Positions 9,841 through 61,683 of a stretch of 64,000 nucleotides of DNA are shown here, in pieces. The notes beneath the pieces were generated by a model that saw only the letters and a program-made list of their open reading frames with translations, searched no databases and was not told the origin of the DNA. Each line of letters starts with the position of its first letter. Position 1 is the first letter of the stretch. Made by a program: the position numbers and the translations under genes. Origin of the DNA: Candidatus Iainarchaeum sp. (GTDB taxonomy: Archaea > Iainarchaeota > Iainarchaeia > Iainarchaeales > UBA10219); assembly GCA_018304425.1 (NCBI GenBank), contig JAGVWE010000006.1:67175-131174 (forward strand), written 5' to 3'.

Positions 9841-9927
9841 AAGGGTTAAAAGGCCTCAAACATTTAAAAAACAAGGCAGGGCCCTGTTTTAGTAAAAGCC
9901 GGAGTAGAAGCCGGCAAGCGGGCGTTT

Positions 9928-14123: not shown

Positions 14124-14163
14124 ATAGATTTAAATATATCTATGGACATAGATATATCTATGG
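14124..14163. promoter_or_regulatory. TATA box flanked by inverted repeat plus a 14-bp perfect palindrome; candidate promoter/operator of the 14182 HTH gene
   Basis: atagat-tttaaatat-atctat (14124-14143) and perfect palindrome atagatatatctat (14148-14161); 12-bp direct repeat atatatctatgg at 14134-14145 and 14152-14163. Confidence 0.55.
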
Positions 14164-14181
14164 TTGTAGATAGGTGGTAGC

Positions 14182-14712
14182 ATGGTGAATCTGGCCGCGC
14201 CCAAAACCCTGGAATTCATCGAGTTCATCCTCGAACAGAAGACCTTTACCCAGTACCGGGCCAAGAAGGAGTTGGGGCTGTCCATGGCCTTGGTCAATCA
14301 GGTCACGCGTTACCTGCTTGCCCGGAACCTCATCACCCGGCAAAAAAGCGAGCGCCAATACGCCTTGCGGGACGCCGCCGGCCTCATCACTTCTATCTCG
14401 TTGTTCCGGAACATGCAGGACATTCAACTGCTCGAAGTAGGCGCCTCGCTGGAAAAAGAGGAAGCCATGAAACTGTTTTCGCCTGACACCGTTTTCTGCC
14501 TGGACACGGCGCTAGCCAATTACACGAACTGGTGGCGTTCGAACCGCGTCTGCGCCTACATAGACCCCATCAACTTGGAGGGCCTGCAAATCCGGTTCGC
14601 CTTCAGCCCCGGCGACACCACCCTCGCAGATCAACGCCGCCGAACCCCTGTTCAAAAAACTCTGGGGGCAAGACATTGCCAAACATTGAAGAACTCTACG
14701 CCAAAGAACTGA
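14182..14712 (+). CDS. AbiEi-like wHTH antitoxin/regulator
   Basis: N-terminal HTH-like region; C-terminal LDTALANYT segment; followed by an overlapping nucleotidyltransferase-fold gene. Confidence 0.4.
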   Translation: MVNLAAPKTLEFIEFILEQKTFTQYRAKKELGLSMALVNQVTRYLLARNLITRQKSERQYALRDAAGLITSISLFRNMQDIQLLEVGASLEKEEAMKLFSPDTVFCLDTALANYTNWWRSNRVCAYIDPINLEGLQIRFAFSPGDTTLADQRRRTPVQKTLGARHCQTLKNSTPKN

Positions 14713-21430: not shown

Positions 21431-21483
21431 TACGCTAATGGGCTTGAAAACCTTTAAAAACAGTAAGAGACAGCCTATTATCC

Positions 21484-26197: not shown

Positions 26198-26903
26198 GGC
26201 CGAATTCCTCCTTTACCTGCTTATACCGTTCGAGGGTGCCGATGTCCCGCATATAGTCTGTTGAAACAAAGCCATATAATGGTTTACTGGCCCCCTTTGC
26301 GGCTGCCTTCACGAGGGCGGGGAAGACGTCGCGGCCGAAGTCCAGGGGAGTGGCATGGGGAATGCCCTTGAAGATGGCGGGTTCCAGGACGTAGCAGCCC
26401 GCATTGGTGAGACCCCCGAGCACGGCAGCTGCCTTGCGGCCGAAGAACGTGATGCGGTTTTGGGAGTCGAGTTCGGCGAGGTCGCTGTCTGCCGGGTGGT
26501 CGGAGGGGTGGAGGACGAGCGAGGCCAGGCCCCCGTGTTCCTGGTGGAAGGCGATGAGCTTGGAGTAATCGAGTCGGCTGGCGACGTCGCCGTAGACGAC
26601 AAGGAAGGTTTCCCCTGGCTGGGATTCGAGTTGCCGGACGCTGCCCGCGGTGCCGAGGAATTCCGGGTCCACCGAGTACGTGATGTGGGCCTTGAACCGT
26701 TCCCCGTAGCCGAAGTAGTCGGAGATTTTTTCGCGCTGGTGGGAAACGCATAAGAGGAGGTCTTGGATGCCGTGCCGGACCAGTCCTTCCACGAGCCACT
26801 CAAGCAGGGGCTTGCCGGCCACGGGCAGCATGACTTTGGGCGTGTCCTGGGTCAGGGGCCTCAACCGTTCCCCCTTTCCTCCCGCGAGGATGACGGCTTT
26901 CAT
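26184..26903 (-). CDS. hddC: D-glycero-alpha-D-manno-heptose 1-phosphate guanylyltransferase
   Basis: MKAVILAGGKGERLRPLT sugar-1-P NTP-transferase motif; overlaps hddA by 14 nt. Confidence 0.75.
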   Translation of the reverse strand: MKAVILAGGKGERLRPLTQDTPKVMLPVAGKPLLEWLVEGLVRHGIQDLLLCVSHQREKISDYFGYGERFKAHITYSVDPEFLGTAGSVRQLESQPGETFLVVYGDVASRLDYSKLIAFHQEHGGLASLVLHPSDHPADSDLAELDSQNRITFFGRKAAAVLGGLTNAGCYVLEPAIFKGIPHATPLDFGRDVFPALVKAAAKGASKPLYGFVSTDYMRDIGTLERYKQVKEEFGLDRQ

Positions 26904-38425: not shown

Positions 38426-38463
38426 AAAGGTATAGCCATTTTGAGGCAAAATACCTTTAAATA
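38426..38463. promoter_or_regulatory. 8-bp inverted repeat AAAGGTAT-N17-ATACCTTT overlapping a tttaaata TATA box in the ugd / RHH-NTase divergent promoter
   Basis: 38426-38433 vs 38451-38458; TATA-like 38456-38463. Confidence 0.45.
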
Positions 38464-38494
38464 TGTGATGGATGCATATAGTGTATGAGCTAGT

Positions 38495-40602: not shown

Positions 40603-41306
40603 TTCACAAGGCATTCATCCTCGCCGGCGGCAAGGGGGAACGGTTGAGGCCCCTGACGGATGAAACGCCCAAGCCCATGCTGGAGGTCTCCGGCAAGCCC
40701 ATCCTCCAGCATGCCATCGACTGGCTGGAATACCATGGCGTGCAGGAAATCGTGTTAGGCGTGGGCTACCAGCACGAAAAAATCATGCACTACTTTGGCA
40801 ACGGCCGGCCGTCGGGCGCGAGGATAACCTACAGCGTGGAAGGAAAACCCCTGGGCACCGGGGGCGCGGTCAAGGCCGCCCAGGAAATGCTGGGCAAAGA
40901 GCCATTCATCATGCTGAACGGCGACAACCTGATGGACGTCGATTACCGGAAAATGGCGGCAGTCCACGAAAAAAACAAGGCGCTGGCCACGATTGCCCTG
41001 GTGGAAGTCAAGGACGTGACCGGTTACGGCGTGGCCCGGCTCCAGGGAGAAAAAATAACAGAGTTCGTGGAAAAACCCGCGCCTGGCCTGGAGCCCAGCA
41101 AGCGCATCAATGCCGGCTGCTATGTCCTGGAACCCAAAGCCCTGGACTTCATCCCCGACGGCTTTTCCCTGATTGAAAAAACCGCTTTTCCCGCGCTCGC
41201 CAAGAAAGGCCGGCTCTACGCGTTTTCCCATGTTGGACAATGGTTTCCCACCGACGACCCCCCGAAATGGGAGGCCGCGAAAAAGGCCTGGAAGCCACCG
41301 GTGTAA
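40599..41306 (+). CDS. sugar-1-phosphate nucleotidyltransferase (mannose/glucose-1-P family)
   Basis: MIHKAFILAGGKGERLRPLT; ORF table opens at 40515 but homology starts at ATG 40599. Confidence 0.75.
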   Translation: MIHKAFILAGGKGERLRPLTDETPKPMLEVSGKPILQHAIDWLEYHGVQEIVLGVGYQHEKIMHYFGNGRPSGARITYSVEGKPLGTGGAVKAAQEMLGKEPFIMLNGDNLMDVDYRKMAAVHEKNKALATIALVEVKDVTGYGVARLQGEKITEFVEKPAPGLEPSKRINAGCYVLEPKALDFIPDGFSLIEKTAFPALAKKGRLYAFSHVGQWFPTDDPPKWEAAKKAWKPPV

Positions 41307-47692: not shown

Positions 47693-48238
47693 TCACATGG
47701 GGTGGCCAACCCGGTACCGGCGCTTGCCGCTTCGCTCTGCTGCGCCGGTGGGGTCGGGTCTGCCCGTTGCCCCAGGCCACCAGCCCTTGGGCTCCAATTG
47801 CTGGACTACCGCATCAATGACGTCTCGGTCCTCGATGCCAAGGACATTCATAAGCCTTGCTTCCACGGCACGTGCGGCGGTGCGAAGGGATTTTTTCATA
47901 GGAATAGGAAGTTCACGAACGTCAAGCCACTGGCCCAATGCATCACGGACGCGCATGAGTTCCACAATCGGTGGCATCGCTTCCTTGAGTTCCGGCAGCT
48001 CGCGTGCAACAAAGCGATAACGCGGCACCCGGTTCAATCGCACGCCAAGCGCGACTTCCATTCTGCGAACCGCTTCCCGGGCCTGTTGCAGGCGCGCAGC
48101 CCGCGCGGCCCGTAACCGGGCAACCGCCACCGGGTTCGATTTCTTTATTTTCTTGGCAAAAATCACATAGTTCTTCGGGGCCTTCACGGGCCTTGGATGA
48201 TAGTCCATGGGGTTCGGCGGTCTGGGCTTTCGCGGCAT
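47693..48238 (-). CDS. hypothetical basic (Arg/Pro-rich) protein
   Basis: 181 aa, no recognisable family; preceded by the shared BRE/TATA module. Confidence 0.35.
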   Translation of the reverse strand: MPRKPRPPNPMDYHPRPVKAPKNYVIFAKKIKKSNPVAVARLRAARAARLQQAREAVRRMEVALGVRLNRVPRYRFVARELPELKEAMPPIVELMRVRDALGQWLDVRELPIPMKKSLRTAARAVEARLMNVLGIEDRDVIDAVVQQLEPKGWWPGATGRPDPTGAAERSGKRRYRVGHPM

Positions 48239-48266: not shown

Positions 48267-48284
48267 CTATTTAACGGTTTCGGG
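48267..48284 (-). promoter_or_regulatory. BRE/TATA promoter module cccgaaaccgttaaatag (copy on minus strand)
   Basis: identical 17-18-mer to 48812-48829 and 50544-50561; 30-36 nt upstream of start codon 48238. Confidence 0.6.
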
Positions 48285-48361
48285 TTCCGCCTTCCTTGCC
48301 GTTCACTTCCATTCCTTGGCCCCCAACCTGAATTCCAGTCTTTTCCCCGGCATGCAAACCA

Positions 48362-48676
48362 CTAGCCTTGCACGTCCAGTACCCTGTACCAGCGTTCGCC
48401 GAAGGCATCCTCCAACATGGATGCATACCCCTCCCCACAGAGGTTTTTGAGACGACGCTCCACATCCCCGTAGAGGCGCATGGCTGCCTTGGTCAATACC
48501 GTGTCCCTTTCTCCCGTATGCTGGCCAAGCCAGATAACGAGCCGCCTGGCGGCATCGCGGGCGACAAACAATTGGCGAAACGGCTCGGGTTGCGTACTGA
48601 TGATATTCACGCGCTTGCTGCGCGGAAGGCCTTTGTCCCACTTCACGGCTGGCACGGCATCGAGGGAAGACAACAC
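48362..48676 (-). CDS. hypothetical protein
   Basis: 104-aa ORF, no recognisable motifs. Confidence 0.25.
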   Translation of the reverse strand: MLSSLDAVPAVKWDKGLPRSKRVNIISTQPEPFRQLFVARDAARRLVIWLGQHTGERDTVLTKAAMRLYGDVERRLKNLCGEGYASMLEDAFGERWYRVLDVQG

Positions 48677-48811
48677 GACCGTCCCTTGAACAAACCCCGA
48701 TTGTAGCGGTGTTTCCTGGATTGGCCCATGCTGCCTCGGCGCGTCATGGAAACAATTACGCTACAGGGACTTAATTAACGTTTGCAGGCCTAGGCATCAG
48801 GCAGGCAGCGA

Positions 48812-48830
48812 CCCGAAACCGTTAAATAGG
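48812..48830 (+). promoter_or_regulatory. BRE/TATA promoter module cccgaaaccgttaaatagg, TATA 29 nt upstream of ATG 48851 (leaderless)
   Basis: CGAAA (BRE-like) + TTAAATA (TATA-like); identical copy upstream of paralog at 50583 with identical spacing. Confidence 0.65.
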
Positions 48831-48850
48831 CTGGAAGCCTTGACTATTAC

Positions 48851-50539
48851 ATGGCTTTCAGCACGCGGGGCATTCGGATGCGCAATCCGCGGACGCACCG
48901 GATGCACTGGGTCGAGTTTGCTGGCACCGTGCCCATGAAGCAGGCACCGAGGCGCTGGATTCAGGTGCCAGAACCGAGTGCGTGGAAGCAGGAAGGCGGG
49001 AAAGAGAATGCAAGCGCGGCGTTCAAAGCATCCCACAGGGACTTGACAAAATATTATCGGGCAAAGCGGGGCGTGCACGGCCCTGGGGGCATGCCGGCGG
49101 ACACGCACCGACGCGCCACGCAATTGCTACAGTTCCTGAAAAAGTTCCCCCCCCAGCCCAGCGCCGTCGAAGTCATGGCCAACCTGGCCTTCAAGAAGGG
49201 CCTGACCAAGAAAGCCTTGGGCCCTTGGGCCACCATGCTGCGGTGGTTCCATCAAAAAAATCCGGGCGTGGTATCGGGTTACCCGCAGTGGACGGCAGTG
49301 GCCGTGAACACGGGCACCCTGGCTAGAGTCGATGAGCTGCTGGACCGGCGGCCTGAATTGTTCGACTCCGGAAAAATCGCGGACGCCTTGTCAATCAAGC
49401 CAACCAAGACGAACATTCAAATCATCAACACGGCCGTCGCCATCCTGGATGCCATGAAATTCGTGCAACGGTGGCAGGGGGAAAACAAGGGCCGCATGCA
49501 GGTGGTGGCGTCCAGGCACCGCTTCAAGGTGCGGTCCGCCCCCTTTGACCGGTCCGTGTTCAAGGTGCTCGATGCGCTCGTGAAGGGAGCGACGACCACG
49601 GCCGAAATAAAGGCCCAGGGAATCAAATACCCCAAGGGACCCCTCAAGCGGCTGGAAGACCACGGCTTTATCGCGGTCAGGAAAGGGAGGGCCCGGAAGT
49701 TTTCGCTCGAAGTGACAGCAGTCGGCCACGAAGCCCATTTTGGCCAAGTGAACCGAAAAAGCGGGACGATTTCGCCGGCCTTCCGGCGGTTGCTCGAAGA
49801 CAAGCGGAGCCCAGGCATCCACAAACGGGCGCGGGACAAGGAAGCCCTCCGAAAGTGGGTGGAGGTGTGGGCGGCAAGGCTTGGCCCGGAAACCCCGCTT
49901 CCGCGCGTGATTGCACAAACGCTGGGAATATCACAAAAATACGTGAATTTAGTCATTTATGAGAACCGGTTTCCCTTGGTCGGTGCCGACCGCATGCCGC
50001 GCGCCCGCGCGTTTATCGCGGAGTTAAGCCGGGAAGTGCCGGGCATGGCCGAGAAATGCCAGACCATCGAAGGCGTGCTGACGAAAATGGAGGCGTTCGA
50101 CCACGCCCGGCAGGCAGCGAAAGAATTCGGGAACAGGATAGCCAAGCGCTTTGGCCTCGATTTGAAAGCGCGCCCACGCCTCGAGTGGAAGGATATGGCC
50201 GTGGAAGAAATCAGGGCGTCCCGCAAACGCATCGGCGAACTGTGGAACGCGCGGCAGGAACTGGAAGAAGTGGCGAAAAGCGTGCCGAGAAAATCGCCTT
50301 CCGGCAGGCACCTCCGAAGAACGGTGCAGGCCGTGGACGCCGAACTCTGCCGGTTGACTGGTGCGGGCGACCCCAGGAGGCTGGAAAACGTACTGGTCGT
50401 CGTGGCACCGAAGGGAACCGATTGGCACCTGTGGCTCGGCATAACCGGCTTGCCCCAACCAATTAGACGGCCCTTCAACGAGAACGAAGGCAACCGAAGG
50501 GCAGCCGCCGGGAGTAGTCGACCTTCGGCCTGGCAGTGA
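48851..50539 (+). CDS. basic multi-wHTH-like protein, paralog A (unknown function)
   Basis: 562 aa, Arg/Lys-rich; segments align with the downstream 511-aa paralog (e.g. AVEVMANLAFKKGLTKKAL vs ANEVLAGLAFAKGLEKGRL); HTH-like ISQKYVNLVIYENRFP. Confidence 0.6.
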   Translation: MAFSTRGIRMRNPRTHRMHWVEFAGTVPMKQAPRRWIQVPEPSAWKQEGGKENASAAFKASHRDLTKYYRAKRGVHGPGGMPADTHRRATQLLQFLKKFPPQPSAVEVMANLAFKKGLTKKALGPWATMLRWFHQKNPGVVSGYPQWTAVAVNTGTLARVDELLDRRPELFDSGKIADALSIKPTKTNIQIINTAVAILDAMKFVQRWQGENKGRMQVVASRHRFKVRSAPFDRSVFKVLDALVKGATTTAEIKAQGIKYPKGPLKRLEDHGFIAVRKGRARKFSLEVTAVGHEAHFGQVNRKSGTISPAFRRLLEDKRSPGIHKRARDKEALRKWVEVWAARLGPETPLPRVIAQTLGISQKYVNLVIYENRFPLVGADRMPRARAFIAELSREVPGMAEKCQTIEGVLTKMEAFDHARQAAKEFGNRIAKRFGLDLKARPRLEWKDMAVEEIRASRKRIGELWNARQELEEVAKSVPRKSPSGRHLRRTVQAVDAELCRLTGAGDPRRLENVLVVVAPKGTDWHLWLGITGLPQPIRRPFNENEGNRRAAAGSSRPSAWQ

Positions 50540-50543
50540 ATCG

Positions 50544-50561
50544 TCCGAAACCGTTAAATAG
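50544..50561 (+). promoter_or_regulatory. BRE/TATA promoter module (third copy), TATA 29 nt upstream of ATG 50583
   Basis: tccgaaaccgttaaatagg; same spacing and ATGGC start context as 48851. Confidence 0.65.
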
Positions 50562-50582
50562 GCCGAAATGGAAGGATAATAC

Positions 50583-52118
50583 ATGGCTACCTTGCGGAAG
50601 TTCATCGGCAAAGTGCCCCTCGTCAAGCGGGTGACCATCCAGACGCGGGCAGGCCCCAGGGAAATCGTGAAGCCCGCGCTCAGGCCCTGGATGCGACAGG
50701 AAAGCACGGCCTATGCAGGCAAAAAGGAGAATGAACCCGAAGCCAATGCCCAGTATAAGAAAGACGTAGCCGAGCTGGCGCAAGAATACGCCAAGGAAGT
50801 GGACCGTTTTGCGGGACACCCGCGTTCCCGCATTGTGGACAGCGCGCGGCGCATGGCCGAGGTGCTCGAATATTTGGCGGCCTTGCCGGAAAAACCGCAC
50901 GCCAATGAAGTGCTGGCCGGCCTGGCCTTCGCCAAAGGCCTCGAAAAAGGGCGGCTACAAGAATATGCGAATAGCCTGGTGCGACTCCAGCGGTTGCGGA
51001 AAAAACTGTTCTACGGTTCGACCATCAAGATACGGGAACTCGTGAACGCGGACATCCTGCACAAGGTCGACGTCGTGCTGAGGCGCGCCCCCAAAATCAT
51101 GAATCCCGCGGAAATCGCGGAAAAGGCTGGGATTGCATCCACGAAAATCAACCGGGATGCGGTGGCAACGGCGGTGAATGTCCTCTCCACCATGAAACTG
51201 GCACAAAAACAACCCCTGTCAGCGAAAGGGAAATCGTTCCGCGTCGTGAACGCCTGGTATAGGCACCGCGTACGGTCCTCACCCGAGGAAAACACCCAAT
51301 ACCAGCTCATGCAGGCACTGGCCAAGGGACCCCACACGGGGGAACAATTGCAGGAAGCATTGGATTTGCGCAGCAACAGCGGTACCCAGGAGGCTTTGAA
51401 CACGGCCATCTCCAGGGGGCTTGCCACGGCCTCCCGTGGCCGCAGCGGAACGCTCGCGCTGACGATAACCGAGCTTGGCAAGGAGCTCCTCGAAGAACAA
51501 GCGGGCCGGAAGCGCATCGTTCCCCGGTTGCGACGCAAATTGCTGGGGGAAAAAAACCATGGACTGACGCCGACGGAAGAATACTCCTACCAATCGCTGT
51601 TACGGTGGGCACGCGTCCAAGCGTTCAGGGCCGAAAATCCGGGATTGACGGACGCTCAAGTCGCCGAGAGAATGGGTGAAATGAAATGGTACCCGACGTT
51701 CATTAATCGAAAAAACTGGGTGTTGCCCGTGAACGCCCAAAGCCCGGAAGCCCGAATCCGGCGGGCGCAGAAACTCTGGCACGTCATGCGGGAACGCGAT
51801 CCCAAGCTGGCCCCCTTCCTGGCCCGGAAAATCGAGGCGGATGCAGCGGCCCATGGCATCCCGGTGGAAAAGGAGGTGCCGGCCAACGGGCTACAGCAAC
51901 ACGTCCGCAACATGGGGTTCCGGTTGCTCAGGCCAAACGAGGAGGGACTACTACTGACGAGGCCGCAGGAAGATGCCCTAGTAGCCCGTTTTACCATGGC
52001 ACCGGAAATGCAAACGCTTTCCCCGGCGGGTCACGCGGCCATGCTTGAATTCCTGGAACGCGTTACTACGCTTTCCCCGGGTGCCCTGCACAGGCTACGC
52101 CAGGCATGGAGAGTTTGA
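50583..52118 (+). CDS. basic multi-wHTH-like protein, paralog B (unknown function)
   Basis: 511 aa, paralogous to 48851 gene. Confidence 0.6.
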   Translation: MATLRKFIGKVPLVKRVTIQTRAGPREIVKPALRPWMRQESTAYAGKKENEPEANAQYKKDVAELAQEYAKEVDRFAGHPRSRIVDSARRMAEVLEYLAALPEKPHANEVLAGLAFAKGLEKGRLQEYANSLVRLQRLRKKLFYGSTIKIRELVNADILHKVDVVLRRAPKIMNPAEIAEKAGIASTKINRDAVATAVNVLSTMKLAQKQPLSAKGKSFRVVNAWYRHRVRSSPEENTQYQLMQALAKGPHTGEQLQEALDLRSNSGTQEALNTAISRGLATASRGRSGTLALTITELGKELLEEQAGRKRIVPRLRRKLLGEKNHGLTPTEEYSYQSLLRWARVQAFRAENPGLTDAQVAERMGEMKWYPTFINRKNWVLPVNAQSPEARIRRAQKLWHVMRERDPKLAPFLARKIEADAAAHGIPVEKEVPANGLQQHVRNMGFRLLRPNEEGLLLTRPQEDALVARFTMAPEMQTLSPAGHAAMLEFLERVTTLSPGALHRLRQAWRV

Positions 52119-52634: not shown

Positions 52635-52688
52635 GCAGGAGAGTGAACTGCATTAAGAATAAATAGTTGTAGTAATCAATTATAAGCG

Positions 52689-56160: not shown

Positions 56161-57023
56161 TAGTTTCCGCCCGTGTAGCTGATGTCGAAGCCCTTGTTGC
56201 CCAACCGATAGGCGACCATGCGTTTTTCGTGGGCGCAGCTCCGGAGTTTGAGGAGTTCCAAGGCGTTTTCGCGGCGCTTGTCGGTCTTCATGTTGTACAA
56301 GACCACGACGCCGTCGGCGAGGAACTCTTCCACGCCCGTGCGGGAATAGAGTTGGGGGTCCTGCTCGGTTTCGCCGATGACGAGGTTCACCGAGTTATTG
56401 TATTCAAGCGTTTCGAAGAGTTCGCGGAGGTACTTCCGGTAGTTTTCCTCGGCCTCGAAGCCGATGGACAAAGCGGAAAGCGAGTCGATGGCGATGCGGT
56501 CGGGCACGAAGGGCAGCTCCATCTTCCGGAACTTGATGCGCAGCGAACCCGTTTTTTCGGCGAGCCTTCCCTCCACGCTGCGCGCAATCTTGGTGGGGTC
56601 GAATTTCACGATGGCCACCATGCCCTGCCGCTCGAGGGCGTCAAAGTCCCAGCCATAGTTCTTGACCATGTGCTTCTTGACTTTGTGGGGCTCTTCCTCA
56701 AAGGAAATGAAAATCCCTTTCTCCCCAGCGAGGGCGCCGTGGTAAATGGATTGCAGGCAAAAAGTGGTCTTTCCCGTGCCGCAGCCGCCCGTAACCAGGG
56801 TCGTGGAACCGCGTTCGAGGCCGCCGTCCTTGATGAGCTTGTCGAAGCTGCTGACGCGGGTGGGCAGGGTTTCAATGGGTGCCCTGCTGACTTCCTTGGG
56901 TTTCAGGCGGAGGATGTCTTCCTCGGCCGCTTCTCCCGGGGCTTCCTCGTCATCCCCGAAGGAAATCACGCGGCTCTTGCGCCACTTGCTGAGCTTTTCC
57001 TCGAGTTTGCTCTCTTCGTCCAT
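56157..57023 (-). CDS. KaiC-like / RecA-superfamily ATPase (single domain)
   Basis: TTLVTGGCGTGKTTFCLQ Walker A, IAIDSLSAL Walker B region; acidic N-terminal extension; own TATA box (plus-strand 57051-57066 tgctatataaataaaa). Confidence 0.75.
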   Translation of the reverse strand: MDEESKLEEKLSKWRKSRVISFGDDEEAPGEAAEEDILRLKPKEVSRAPIETLPTRVSSFDKLIKDGGLERGSTTLVTGGCGTGKTTFCLQSIYHGALAGEKGIFISFEEEPHKVKKHMVKNYGWDFDALERQGMVAIVKFDPTKIARSVEGRLAEKTGSLRIKFRKMELPFVPDRIAIDSLSALSIGFEAEENYRKYLRELFETLEYNNSVNLVIGETEQDPQLYSRTGVEEFLADGVVVLYNMKTDKRRENALELLKLRSCAHEKRMVAYRLGNKGFDISYTGGNY

Positions 57024-57118: not shown

Positions 57119-58351
57119 TTATAGGGCTCCTTCTTCGCCTCCCTGGCTCTTCAAGATCTTGTCGATTTCGATGAGGCGGGCCTCGGCTTCGCCCAAGCGC
57201 TTCTTGAAGGTGTTCTTGTCGATGACCATGCGGTCAAAGTAGTCCGCCTGGATCTTGCGGATGCCTTCCCGCAACCGCCCGCGCTCGGCCAACAAGGACT
57301 TGCGGTCAAGCTGGCCACGCACCTTGGAATAACCCGTGTAAGCCGCGGCCCCCAGGAGGACCAACGCGAAGACGATGATCAAGCCATTGTTTTTGAGGAA
57401 CAAGGCCGTTCGGTCCACGGTAATCACGAGGTCAATCACCTTTTTCCCCTCGTTTCCGGCGGAGTCCGCGACCGTCAAGGCAAAGGACAGGGAACCGATG
57501 TGTTTTTCCTCGGCCTCGAATTTGCCGGCAAAAGTGCTTTCCACGCCGGACACGGGCTGCAACTCCAGCTTGGAGCCATTGAATTCAAGCCACGCCTTCC
57601 CCCCCGTCAAGGGCTTGCCGCTGGGGTACGAGGCCTTCACTTTGAAGGGGATCTCGGTCTCCAAGTCAAAGTTGGAGATGCTGGGCTCCAGGACTTCCAG
57701 CTTGAGGTCGGCACGGTCAATGCCCACCACCAAGGTGTTGGCGCCCCCCAAAGACTTTTCCCCGGTTTTTTCGGCCAGCACGTGCAGGAACCAGTTCCCG
57801 CCCTGGGCATCAAAGGGCACCAGATAGTCAGCGGAATACACGCCCAAACCGGTTTCCTCCAGGGGGCGGGGCTCGCCGGACACGTCGAAGAACACCACGT
57901 TGGCGCCGCTGACGGGTTCCCCTGACTCGGAGAGCTTCACGCTAATCGACAACGACTCGGTCTTATAGTGCTTGACCGGTGCCGGGCTCACGAAGGTAAC
58001 CAGGTAATAATCGCTGTCCGCCGTGGGCTTGACCTCGGTTTCGGCTTCAGCCGAGGCCTGGCCCTCCACGGCCTTCACCGTCCACTGACCGGAGGGCACC
58101 AGGAAAGAAATGCCTTGGAACAAGGAGTACTTGCCTTCCGCGTTGCACGGCACCGCCTGCGCAAACGGCTTGGCCTTGCCCTTTTCCGTCCACGCCGAAA
58201 CTTCAACGGTTTCATTGGCCGTGCACTGGCCGGAAACCGCCATTTCCTGGCCCTTGAAATAGGTCTGCTTGTCCAATTCCACGGTCAACGCCTGGACCCC
58301 CACGAAGGCCAGGCAAAAAACCAGCAAAAACAGGGCCCGCCCGGAATTCAT
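57119..58351 (-). CDS. secreted membrane-anchored beta-rich surface protein with cytoplasmic coiled-coil tail
   Basis: signal peptide, TM LIIVFALVLLGAAAYTGY, tail ...DKNTFKKRLGEAEARLIEIDKILKS. Confidence 0.5.
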   Translation of the reverse strand: MNSGRALFLLVFCLAFVGVQALTVELDKQTYFKGQEMAVSGQCTANETVEVSAWTEKGKAKPFAQAVPCNAEGKYSLFQGISFLVPSGQWTVKAVEGQASAEAETEVKPTADSDYYLVTFVSPAPVKHYKTESLSISVKLSESGEPVSGANVVFFDVSGEPRPLEETGLGVYSADYLVPFDAQGGNWFLHVLAEKTGEKSLGGANTLVVGIDRADLKLEVLEPSISNFDLETEIPFKVKASYPSGKPLTGGKAWLEFNGSKLELQPVSGVESTFAGKFEAEEKHIGSLSFALTVADSAGNEGKKVIDLVITVDRTALFLKNNGLIIVFALVLLGAAAYTGYSKVRGQLDRKSLLAERGRLREGIRKIQADYFDRMVIDKNTFKKRLGEAEARLIEIDKILKSQGGEEGAL

Positions 58352-60471: not shown

Positions 60472-60507
60472 GCCAAACCACTAACATATACCTGATTTAT
60501 ATTTAAA

Positions 60508-61683
60508 ATGGTTATGGCTCAATTGGCTTTAATGACCGAGGAATACGCGGCTGCCGTGGTCGGAGCGGGTCCCGTGGGCTTGAATGCCGCCATCCAGGTG
60601 CAGAAGAACGGCTTCGACGTCGTGGTCTTGGAGGACTCCGAGGAAATCGGCCTGCCCTGCCAGTGCTCGGGCCTGATTTCGCGGAGCGGCTACGAGGGCC
60701 TGGGCCTGAAGTACGACAAGACCATCGTCAACCGCGTGCGGGGCGCCAGGATTTTCGCCCCCGACCGCACCGAGTTCAAGGTCGAACGGTTTGACACGGT
60801 TGCCTACGTCATCGACCGGCCGAAGCTCGACAAGGTCTTCGCCCGGGACGCCAAGGAACTGGGGGTCGACATCTGGCTGAACTCCAGCGTCGTGGACGTG
60901 AAGGACGGAACGGTTTTCTACAAGAACAAGGCCGGCAAAGGCGAGATGGTGAAGGCCAAGGCCGTGGTGGGCGCGGACGGAATCGTTTCAACGGTGCGGA
61001 AGTCCATGGGCATCGAAGCCCAAAAGGAGTGGTACGTGCCCGGCTACCAGATTACCGGCCGCGGAAAGTTCGACCCCGACTTCGTGGAAGTGCACTTCGG
61101 GCCCTGGGCCGACAAGTTCTTCGCCTGGGTCATCCCGGAAAGCAAGACCACGGCCCGGATTGGCTTGGGCGTCACCGGGAAGAACGCGCGCACCTGCCTC
61201 GAGCAGTTCATGGACGACCGCGGCATCAAGGCGCAGAAGCTGGACTTCCAGGCCGGTGTCATCCCGGCCGGGCCGCCGGTAACCAATCTGGTGAAGGACA
61301 ACGTCTTGCTGGCCGGGGACGCGGCGTTCCAGGCCAAGGCCACGACGGGCGGGGGAATCATGCTGGGCATCGAGGCCAGCAACCACGCCGCCAAAGCCAT
61401 CGTGGACCACTTCAAGTACAAGACGCCCCTGACCTCCTACCAGAAGCACGTGGAACCCGTGACGCGGGAGCTGGAAATCCATTGGCGCGTGCGCAGGTAC
61501 CTGAACCAGTTGAACGACGAGGACCTGAACAAGCTCTTCCAGCGCATGAAGGCCGCGGGCATGGAAAAGTTTTTGTCGGACAACGCGGACATGGACAAGC
61601 CCAGCAGTTTCTTGAAGAAAGTCGCGGGCAGCCCCAAGATGTGGATGATGCTGCCGGAGATGATTAAGTTCCTCAGAGGATAA
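60508..61683 (+). CDS. geranylgeranyl reductase-family FAD-dependent oxidoreductase (archaeal lipid saturase-like)
   Basis: AAVVGAGPVGLNAA FAD motif, ...VGADGIVSTVRK..., size ~390 aa typical of GGR. Confidence 0.8.
   Translation: MVMAQLALMTEEYAAAVVGAGPVGLNAAIQVQKNGFDVVVLEDSEEIGLPCQCSGLISRSGYEGLGLKYDKTIVNRVRGARIFAPDRTEFKVERFDTVAYVIDRPKLDKVFARDAKELGVDIWLNSSVVDVKDGTVFYKNKAGKGEMVKAKAVVGADGIVSTVRKSMGIEAQKEWYVPGYQITGRGKFDPDFVEVHFGPWADKFFAWVIPESKTTARIGLGVTGKNARTCLEQFMDDRGIKAQKLDFQAGVIPAGPPVTNLVKDNVLLAGDAAFQAKATTGGGIMLGIEASNHAAKAIVDHFKYKTPLTSYQKHVEPVTRELEIHWRVRRYLNQLNDEDLNKLFQRMKAAGMEKFLSDNADMDKPSSFLKKVAGSPKMWMMLPEMIKFLRG
61647..61671. repeat. 25-bp direct repeat copy 1 (3' end of GGR gene)
   Basis: gatgctgccggagatgattaagttc repeated exactly at 61796-61820. 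Confidence 0.7.

Follow-up and report, generated by a model that had tools for sequence, protein, structure and literature searches.

Three neighbouring genes of a Candidatus Iainarchaeum genome share an identical BRE/TATA-like module, and two of them code for paralogous proteins with predicted winged-helix arrays

Archaea of the DPANN group have very small genomes in which many genes are unannotated and, to our knowledge, the control of their transcription is almost unknown. The DNA analysed here is a 64-kb stretch (hereafter, the window) of a metagenome-assembled genome (MAG) from groundwater, named Candidatus Diapherotrites archaeon or Candidatus Iainarchaeum sp., a DPANN archaeon. It carries three genes that are each preceded by the same short promoter-like sequence, which we call the module: two large paralogous genes in tandem on the plus strand and, read divergently from them, a small gene for an Arg/Pro-rich protein of 181 aa. 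A further open reading frame (ORF) of 104 aa lies between the divergent modules, and the products of all four are annotated as “hypothetical protein” (Table 1).

The module is the 17-mer CCGAAACCGTTAAATAG, found in exactly three exact copies in the window where 0.03 would be expected from dinucleotide-preserving shuffles, none of 100 such shuffles giving three copies; allowing up to two mismatches adds no site anywhere in the 64 kb. A preliminary description of this DNA had reported the three copies within 2.3 kb, each upstream of a start codon, and exact matching bears this out, with some end coordinates shifted by one base. Each copy consists of a BRE-like part (for transcription factor B recognition element), CGAAACCG, abutting an 8-bp TATA-like part, TTAAATAG. 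Copy 3 begins only 6 nt past the stop codon of paralog 1, and the start contexts of the two plus-strand genes are ctattacATGGCT and ataatacATGGCT; the hexamers directly upstream of their ATGGCT are presumably, from what is generally known of archaeal promoters, an A/T-rich proximal element (PPE) followed by a pyrimidine-purine initiator (Inr). No other repeated intergenic module was found in the window.

Table 1. Positions of the genes, promoter modules and related features. Positions are those of the 64-kb window unless another locus (L) is named; aa, amino acids; pI, isoelectric point.
Feature	Position	Strand	Details
181-aa gene	47693..48238	-	Arg/Pro-rich; MBS3063681.1, “hypothetical protein”; pI 11.3
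Promoter module, copy 1	48267..48283	-	Exact match; 28 nt, then ATGCCG opening the 181-aa ORF
104-aa ORF	48362..48676	-	Between the divergent modules, without a module of its own; MBS3063682.1 (103/104 aa), “hypothetical protein”
Promoter module, copy 2	48813..48829	+	Exact match; 21 nt, then ATGGCT of the 562-aa gene
TATTAC directly upstream of ATGGCT, paralog 1	48845..48850	+	Alignment of seven promoters
Paralog 1	48851..50539	+	562 aa; pI 10.9; MBS3063683.1, “hypothetical protein”
MarR/PadR-like winged helix of paralog 1	49553..49750	+	Residues ~235-300; mapped via the family alignment
Promoter module, copy 3	50545..50561	+	Exact match; 21 nt, then ATGGCT of the 511-aa gene
TAATAC directly upstream of ATGGCT, paralog 2	50577..50582	+	Sequence context and alignment of seven promoters
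Paralog 2	50583..52118	+	511 aa; pI 10.3; MBS3063684.1, “hypothetical protein”
Other genes with a TATA hexamer 27-33 nt upstream of ATG (gene starts)	9840(-), 21430(-), 21484, 29878, 39371, 52634(-), 52689, 55741, 60471(-)
A/T-rich stretches reading as TATA on both strands	9851-9870, 21446-21460, 38451-38468, 52655-52670, 60496-60515		Compact bidirectional promoters
Module copy in L031			ACGAAACCGTTAAATAC; 21 nt, then ATGGCA of the 433-aa paralog P0004
Module copy in L031			CCGAAACCGTTAAATAG; 21 nt, then ATGGCATTCAGCACG (MAFST..., N-terminus as in the 562-aa protein)
Module copy in L031			GCAAAACCGTTAAATAC; on the opposite strand, 20 bp from the ACGAAACCGTTAAATAC copy; 31 nt, then ATG of the 338-aa protein
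Sigma-70 fusion P0005	L064 653-2560		Region 2, 33.5 bits; region 4, 26.5 bits; both above gathering scores
Sigma-70 fusion P0021	L065 2854-4731		Region 2, 36.8 bits; region 4 below cut-off
Sigma-70 fusion P0023			Region 4, 46.6 bits; region 2 just below cut-off
Sigma-70 fusion P0029			Region 4, region 4_2 (38.1 bits) and the ECF model
Sigma-70 fusion P0035			Region 2 only, below cut-off

The distance from the first base of the TATA-like element to the ATG is 29 nt in both paralogs and 36 nt in the 181-aa gene. The module had first been described as a BRE (CGAAA) plus TATA element giving leaderless transcripts, and its form and distance do fit a start at or next to the ATG; one has to keep in mind, however, that a leaderless layout with this spacing is the norm in this genome. 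Indeed, in at least nine other genes of the window a TATA hexamer lies 27-33 nt upstream of the ATG, and it is often preceded by an AAAnCC-like BRE element; the sequences vary among these promoters, and the genome's promoter consensus is AAAnCC followed by a TTTAAA-like element. A 29-nt spacing being normal here, neither it nor the leaderless layout deduced from it is special to the trio; what distinguishes the trio's module is its exact identity. Like canonical archaeal BRE/TATA/Inr leaderless promoters, those of the trio have a purine-rich BRE (CGAAA) directly upstream of the 8-bp TATA element, an A/T-rich element, a pyrimidine-purine step at the start codon and, for the paralogs, the TATA element 29 nt before the ATG, so that the module has the appearance of a near-consensus archaeal BRE/TATA in the standard leaderless geometry of the organism. 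Unlike them, the trio's promoters are identical over 17 bp, with a 13-bp core, AAACCGTTAAATA, that is invariant in three lineages, whereas the other promoters of the genome are only loosely alike.

This invariance is seen in two relatives of the locus. The more diverged one, L031, is syntenic with the window, opens with the same IF-2B-family gene and has three copies of the module, with 0, 2 and 3 mismatches limited to the outer positions (Table 1). The other, L002 (84% amino acid identity), keeps aatcgtCCGAAACCGTTAAATAG followed by 21 nt and ATGGCT, the identity including a 6-nt upstream extension of module copy 3, while its spacer sequence has diverged. When the seven promoters from these three diverged lineages (three from the window, one from L002 and three from L031) are aligned, the invariant positions are C-AAACCGTTAAATA, a few scattered others and the start codon, and the flanks have drifted; in all five paralog promoters, from the three lineages, TA(T/A)TAC lies directly upstream of ATGGC. 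As the module is common to non-homologous genes, namely the paralogs on the one hand and the 181/338-aa gene on the other, duplication of a gene together with its promoter cannot account for all copies. The block is identical while the coding sequences of the two window paralogs have fallen to 30% identity (over 326 aa of the proteins, E 6e-31), and gene conversion is an unlikely cause, the block being too short for it; the comparison thus indicates that purifying selection acts on a block of 13-17 bp.

The preliminary description had proposed a genome-wide count of the 17-mer, which could be made for ~82 kb of the source genome, that is, the window plus ~9 kb on either side. Only the three copies are present in these ~82 kb: the sequence beyond each window end has none at up to three mismatches to the 17-mer or up to one to its 13-mer core, and the sole near match in the flanking ~18 kb is an intragenic site with two mismatches. 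The source genome is absent from the two large DNA collections searched. In the genome collection, the 17-mer gave 20 single matches on bacterial contigs (16 MAGs and 4 isolates), as is consistent with chance; in the metagenome collection it gave 35 stretches, all of them apparently chance matches save L031.

Such figures have to be read against an alternative that we hold to be rather unlikely, yet serious, according to which the 17-mer is simply an optimal BRE/TATA for transcription factor B (TFB) and the TATA-binding protein (TBP), ensuring high constitutive expression of abundant architectural or nucleoid-associated winged-helix proteins, either chromatin-like or similar to the “kite” accessory proteins of SMC complexes. 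The likeness of the module to the consensus of the window and the ordinary leaderless spacing are what this alternative would predict for the DNA, and the very high pI of the proteins (10.3-11.3) suits its second half. However, the other promoters of the genome tolerate many variants of TATA and BRE, and identity in three sites of the window and across seven copies exceeds the needs of TBP and TFB. Nor is top-level expression suggested by G+C content at third codon positions (GC3), which is 0.71-0.74 in the paralog genes versus 0.79-0.88 in most neighbouring genes; a length of 500-560 aa is, in addition, atypical of chromatin proteins.

Turning to the proteins, the two paralogs are ancient duplicates within a small, uncharacterised archaeal family. 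At E <= 1e-3, a HMMER profile scan of 1.84 billion representatives retrieved 51 related clusters, mostly 400-640 aa long, and 20 of these also pass E <= 1e-10; the few that bear a source name are all archaeal (Candidatus Diapherotrites archaeon, Iainarchaeum sp. or simply “archaeon”). The earlier statement that these proteins have no detectable homology is thus refuted by some 51 related clusters, archaeal where named and in some cases fused to sigma-70 domains. Word-indexed homology searches with each paralog gave near-identical sequences only, and such a search with the 51-sequence alignment gave P0001 and P0002 only. The family shares a core of ~410 aa that comprises the N-terminal motif M-x-S-x-R-R-F-V-G-K-V-P...R-A-L, seen in paralog 2 as MATLRKFIGKVPLVKRV, and several blocks resembling a helix-turn-helix (HTH). 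At five loci of other lineages the family gene is single and lies among housekeeping genes (e.g., purine biosynthesis, tRNA deacylase, TatD).

One of these blocks can be assigned more closely: positions 229-313 of the 51-sequence family profile match MarR/PadR structures of the PDB with E-values of 4.7e-6 to 1e-3 (a three-sequence profile gave no PDB match), and several relatives score at or above the Pfam gathering score for MarR_2, HTH_IclR, TrmB, HTH_5 (ArsR) or HTH_20. Confident AlphaFold2 models of both paralogs, built on 51-sequence alignments, agree with this assignment. The model of paralog 1 has a predicted local distance difference test (pLDDT) score of 81.2 and a predicted template modelling (pTM) score of 0.65, and its winged helices span residues ~156-220 and ~235-300; that of paralog 2 has a pLDDT of 85.4 and a pTM of 0.76, with winged helices at ~158-223 and ~238-306. 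In each model the N-terminal part is helical, two winged helices are clear, and there are additional HTH units as well as long helices at the C-terminus. In both, the second winged helix (~235-300 and ~238-306, block pLDDT ~80-97) is predicted as three helices plus a beta-hairpin wing, for paralog 1 H235-244, H250-255, H262-270, E274-278 and E284-288. The first impression of two basic paralogs with winged-helix-like segments is therefore upheld by their pairwise alignment, their pI, the profile match and the models.

The comparison with MarR/PadR regulators, many of which in archaea bind their own promoter at the BRE/TATA or beside it, extends to that one domain, matched by profile and modelled with the same three helices and beta-hairpin wing. 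MarR/PadR regulators have a single domain in ~110-190 aa and act as dimers, whereas the window proteins are 511-562 aa long, have at least four HTH or winged-helix units and carry the conserved N-terminal motif as well as the long C-terminal helices. Whole-model comparison by Foldseek against the PDB gave no significant match for either paralog, none reaching E 1e-3. The top entry for both is human RPC62 of RNA polymerase III (E 0.036 and 0.013, probability up to 0.82), a subunit with four extended winged helices and, after them, C-terminal helices. Other tandem-winged-helix proteins come next, namely the SelB C-terminus, ScpB, MukE/MukF, Nse, ESCRT-II, TFIIIC and TFIIE, and the list as a whole has E-values of 0.013-0.3 and template modelling (TM) scores of ~0.1-0.3; judging from the models, it signals no more than a string of winged helices.

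The tandem winged-helix proteins of this list (ScpB, MukE/MukF, Nse and ESCRT-II, among the top non-significant matches) are those that the abundant-architectural-protein alternative would call upon. Yet these kite-like matches have E-values of 0.03-0.4 (0.05-0.3 for the kite/ScpB type) and TM of ~0.1-0.3 and cover single domains only; kite/ScpB proteins have two winged helices in ~170-250 aa and are encoded with a kleisin or SMC gene, unlike the 511-562-aa proteins of the window, and no SMC or kleisin gene is present, adjacent or otherwise, in the ~21-kb gene table around the paralog locus.

A connection to transcription comes from relatives. Five family members (P0005, P0021, P0023, P0029 and P0035; 623-640 aa) end in C-terminal sigma-70 domains, above the Pfam gathering scores in four of them (Table 1), and it is these fusions that tie the family to transcription. 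The DNA upstream of P0005 and P0021 has TATA-like boxes 23-26 nt before the ATG, a leaderless-style arrangement, as in the non-fused relatives, and the cluster of a gene next to P0021 has the NCBI source name of an “archaeon” MAG. The two window paralogs have no Pfam sigma match, and a hidden Markov model (HMM) made from the sigma parts of the five relatives found no sigma-like ORF among all ORFs of the window (best E 0.21). Castelle et al. (2021; PMC8204110) described sigma-70-class genes in DPANN (fam00359), for which no anti-sigma factors were found and the control mechanism was unclear. The window proteins resemble these genes by way of the five relatives, which bear sigma-70 region 2 and/or region 4 C-terminally, and differ in that neither paralog has a sigma domain; the passages of that article considered here make no mention of a ~410-aa winged-helix core fused to sigma. 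The fused core may be relevant to these so far unexplained DPANN sigma factors.

It follows that the family could also be read as an initiation factor associated with RNA polymerase, the winged-helix array acting as a clamp binder of the TFIIE/RPC62 type or as a partner of sigma domains, in other words a lineage-specific general or alternative factor; we consider this improbable. RPC62 tops the Foldseek PDB list for both independently modelled paralogs, chains of RNA polymerase III, TFIIIC and TFIIE are listed too, RPC62/C82 (RPC3) and TFIIE-like arrays share with our models a linear series of winged helices followed by C-terminal helices, and the sigma fusions would fit. DPANN are, moreover, reported to lack TFE-beta (PMC7289017). 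Still, the structural matches are all worse than E 1e-3, that to RPC62 being non-significant (E 0.013-0.04, TM 0.10-0.13, root-mean-square deviation 17-28 A) and having the winged-helix string only in common; no Pfam match to the Rpc82, HTH_9 or TFE families accompanies them, so that on the models the resemblance to RPC62 is a lead and not a classification. The missing sigma domains in the window also count against such a factor, and regulators would explain at least equally well why there are two diverged paralogs here and single copies, in variable contexts, elsewhere. Pushed further, the ~410-aa core would be a DPANN-specific initiation factor contacting both RNA polymerase and the promoter DNA around the BRE/TATA, much as arrays of the TFIIE/RPC62 type do; the sigma fusions of some members would then illustrate the wiring of bacterial domains into the TBP/TFB machinery, and the invariant AAACCGTTAAATA would be the recognition element of the factor and mark a small, dedicated class of promoters. 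This is a long shot.

The reading that we prefer, tentatively, is that the paralogs are lineage-specific multi-winged-helix DNA-binding proteins with a role in transcription, and that each of them, like their partner, is expressed from its own near-consensus promoter, which would double as a shared control site. On this reading, each of the three genes would be driven by its own copy of the core promoter CGAAACCG plus TTAAATAG, the third, an unrelated gene for a small basic protein, being read divergently from the paralogs; transcription would start at the ATG of the paralogs, without a leader, and ~7-10 nt upstream of the third gene's ATG. The paralogs, going by their models, would be sequence- or structure-specific DNA binders. 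Since the other promoters of the genome vary freely and yet the trio's copies are identical, we infer that the block of 13-17 bp would be more than a TBP/TFB site and would also serve as a common control site coupling the expression of the three genes; the winged-helix proteins encoded there are themselves the obvious candidates to bind it, which would amount to autoregulation.

Several points weigh against this reading. With up to three mismatches, the 13-mer occurs 22 times versus 7.7 expected, mostly at other promoters, which places the module near the genome consensus, and selection for a strong TBP/TFB site may be all that its conservation reflects. The idea of a “dedicated” promoter, put forward in the preliminary description, accordingly stands in part: three copies in ~82 kb and a core that is invariant in relatives speak for it, the closeness to the genome consensus against it. 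The regulon could be examined in only those ~82 kb, the start sites of the trio rest on the spacing of sequence elements, and no operator-like palindrome common to all three promoters was found outside the module. As for the proteins, it had been suggested that the paralogs be compared with known families: the family profile does match MarR/PadR over one domain, but the window proteins alone remain sub-threshold, reaching no Pfam gathering score (HTH_24, HTH_IclR and wHTH-PRTase_assc at E 0.02-0.3), so that their assignment as winged-helix proteins rests on the family profile and the predicted structures. Finally, the family gene of other lineages is single and has another promoter sequence and no partner gene; the trio is lineage-specific and not a conserved system.

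The paralog family of multi-winged-helix proteins is previously undescribed, and the locus pairs this transcription-factor-like family, whose architecture is unusual, with archaeal promoters that are canonical in type but unusually uniform. It is a concrete handle, in that a strictly conserved block of 13-17 bp stands beside multi-winged-helix proteins that could bind it, and the sigma fusions connect the family to the sigma factors reported from DPANN, so far without explanation (PMC8204110). These fusions in relatives add to its weight; the ordinary promoter geometry and the restriction of the trio to one narrow lineage detract from it. Should the paralogs prove to be ordinary autoregulated repressors, the gain would be modest, namely a family name for ~50 clusters of “hypothetical protein”.

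The third gene of the trio calls for some corrections. Its basic, Arg/Pro-rich product (11% Pro, 21.5% Lys+Arg) is as first described, but it looks truncated relative to its homolog in L031, a 338-aa protein (1465-2481) to whose N-terminal half it is homologous (43% identity over 93 aa, E 1e-16) and to which its last ~30 residues are unrelated. Some gene callers place the start at 48208 (Met11), for a product of 171 aa; the first ATG is supported by the MP(R/K)K N-termini of the 181-aa and 338-aa proteins, whose alignment begins with the first Met. At the five other loci, no partner of the 181/338-aa type lies beside the family genes.

The divergent modules are separated by a 530-bp spacer (48284-48812) in the window versus 20 bp in L031. 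The 104-aa ORF of this spacer is called as a gene on 14 contigs. Its similarity to the last 80 residues of the 338-aa protein is collinear but weak (BLASTP E 0.009, tblastn E 0.07), and it may be a displaced C-terminal piece of that gene. From these alignments, the lineage of the window may have duplicated the partner gene and split it; the parts of the spacer stand in an order that tandem duplication of this gene and subsequent reciprocal loss could leave. We also considered the spacer as a decayed third paralog, the counterpart of P0004 in L031, and found no support for it (best tblastn E 0.09, family HMM E 0.14). A palindromic TTAATTAA lies within the spacer at 48773-48780.

The surroundings of the trio are of a housekeeping kind. 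One flank has genes for an IF-2B-family isomerase, a class II aldolase, a PNP/UDP phosphorylase, a phosphoribosyltransferase and a PIN protein; the other has genes for a small multidrug-export protein, a 1002-aa surface protein with fibronectin domains, a KaiC-like ATPase and a geranylgeranyl-reductase-like oxidoreductase. The strain-variant contigs L070 and L071 end at or just before the paralog locus, beside the Sm_multidrug_ex gene, and one of them codes for a surface protein of 970 aa versus 1002 aa, which suggests strain-level variation around the paralog region.

This neighbourhood bears on whether the trio might be carried by an integrated plasmid or virus, or be an antiviral system with its own promoters, a defence-related role having been among the options raised at the outset; we regard it as highly improbable. 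Its proteins are lineage-restricted and annotated as hypothetical, the GC3 of the trio is somewhat under that of the flanking genes, and toxin-antitoxin genes (PIN, PemK, AbiEii) exist elsewhere in the window, all of which a mobile element or defence island could explain. Against it, neither the three proteins nor the 104-aa ORF had a match at or near threshold in Pfam, NCBIfam, PHROGs or PADLOC, the only match among the PADLOC-DB defence models being Cmr6 (E 0.029, 12 bits), taken as noise, and a viral structure search returned one marginal, unnamed match. The region has no integrase, flanking repeat or adjacent tRNA; the same IF-2B-family isomerase gene adjoins the locus in the diverged L031, and family members elsewhere stand single amid housekeeping genes. 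With negative PADLOC and PHROGs searches, housekeeping neighbours and conserved synteny, the defence option was dropped.

Some other features of this DNA deserve mention. The two low-GC genes (0.48-0.51) at 782-2779 are probably a toxin-antitoxin or abortive-infection module of the AbiE type: one product, of 271 aa, has no family match, and the other, of 393 aa, is a nucleotidyltransferase toxin of the AbiEii family. Further toxin-antitoxin genes (PIN, PemK, UPF0175) are dispersed over the window. A 400-aa ORF of the same genome (L069 13806-15008), ~3.5 kb outside the window on its right, has a Cas12f1-like_TNB domain of the TnpB type, which suggests an IS200/IS605-type element nearby. A second exact 17-mer repeat, TTTTCCTCGGCCTCGAA, is located at 56443-56459 and 57504-57520, inside two adjacent minus-strand genes, the KaiC-like gene of 288 aa and a 410-aa gene without family match; it could be due to chance or to a short shared coding motif. 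An inverted repeat of 197 nt with 71% identity (26704-26900 and 40608-40804, 13.7 kb apart) probably corresponds to opposite-strand paralogous sugar-nucleotide or glycosylation genes in a cell-surface glycan region (~2.8-44 kb).

As to promoters outside the trio, several divergent gene pairs have one A/T-rich stretch that reads as TATA on both strands, with each ATG ~27-33 nt away (Table 1). Finally, a gene whose start is at 14182 is immediately preceded, at 14129-14181, by a TTTAAATA box with overlapping palindromes and direct repeats (tatctatggacatagatatatctatggttgtagata) downstream of it; on its sequence, this arrangement looks like an operator placed between TATA box and start codon.

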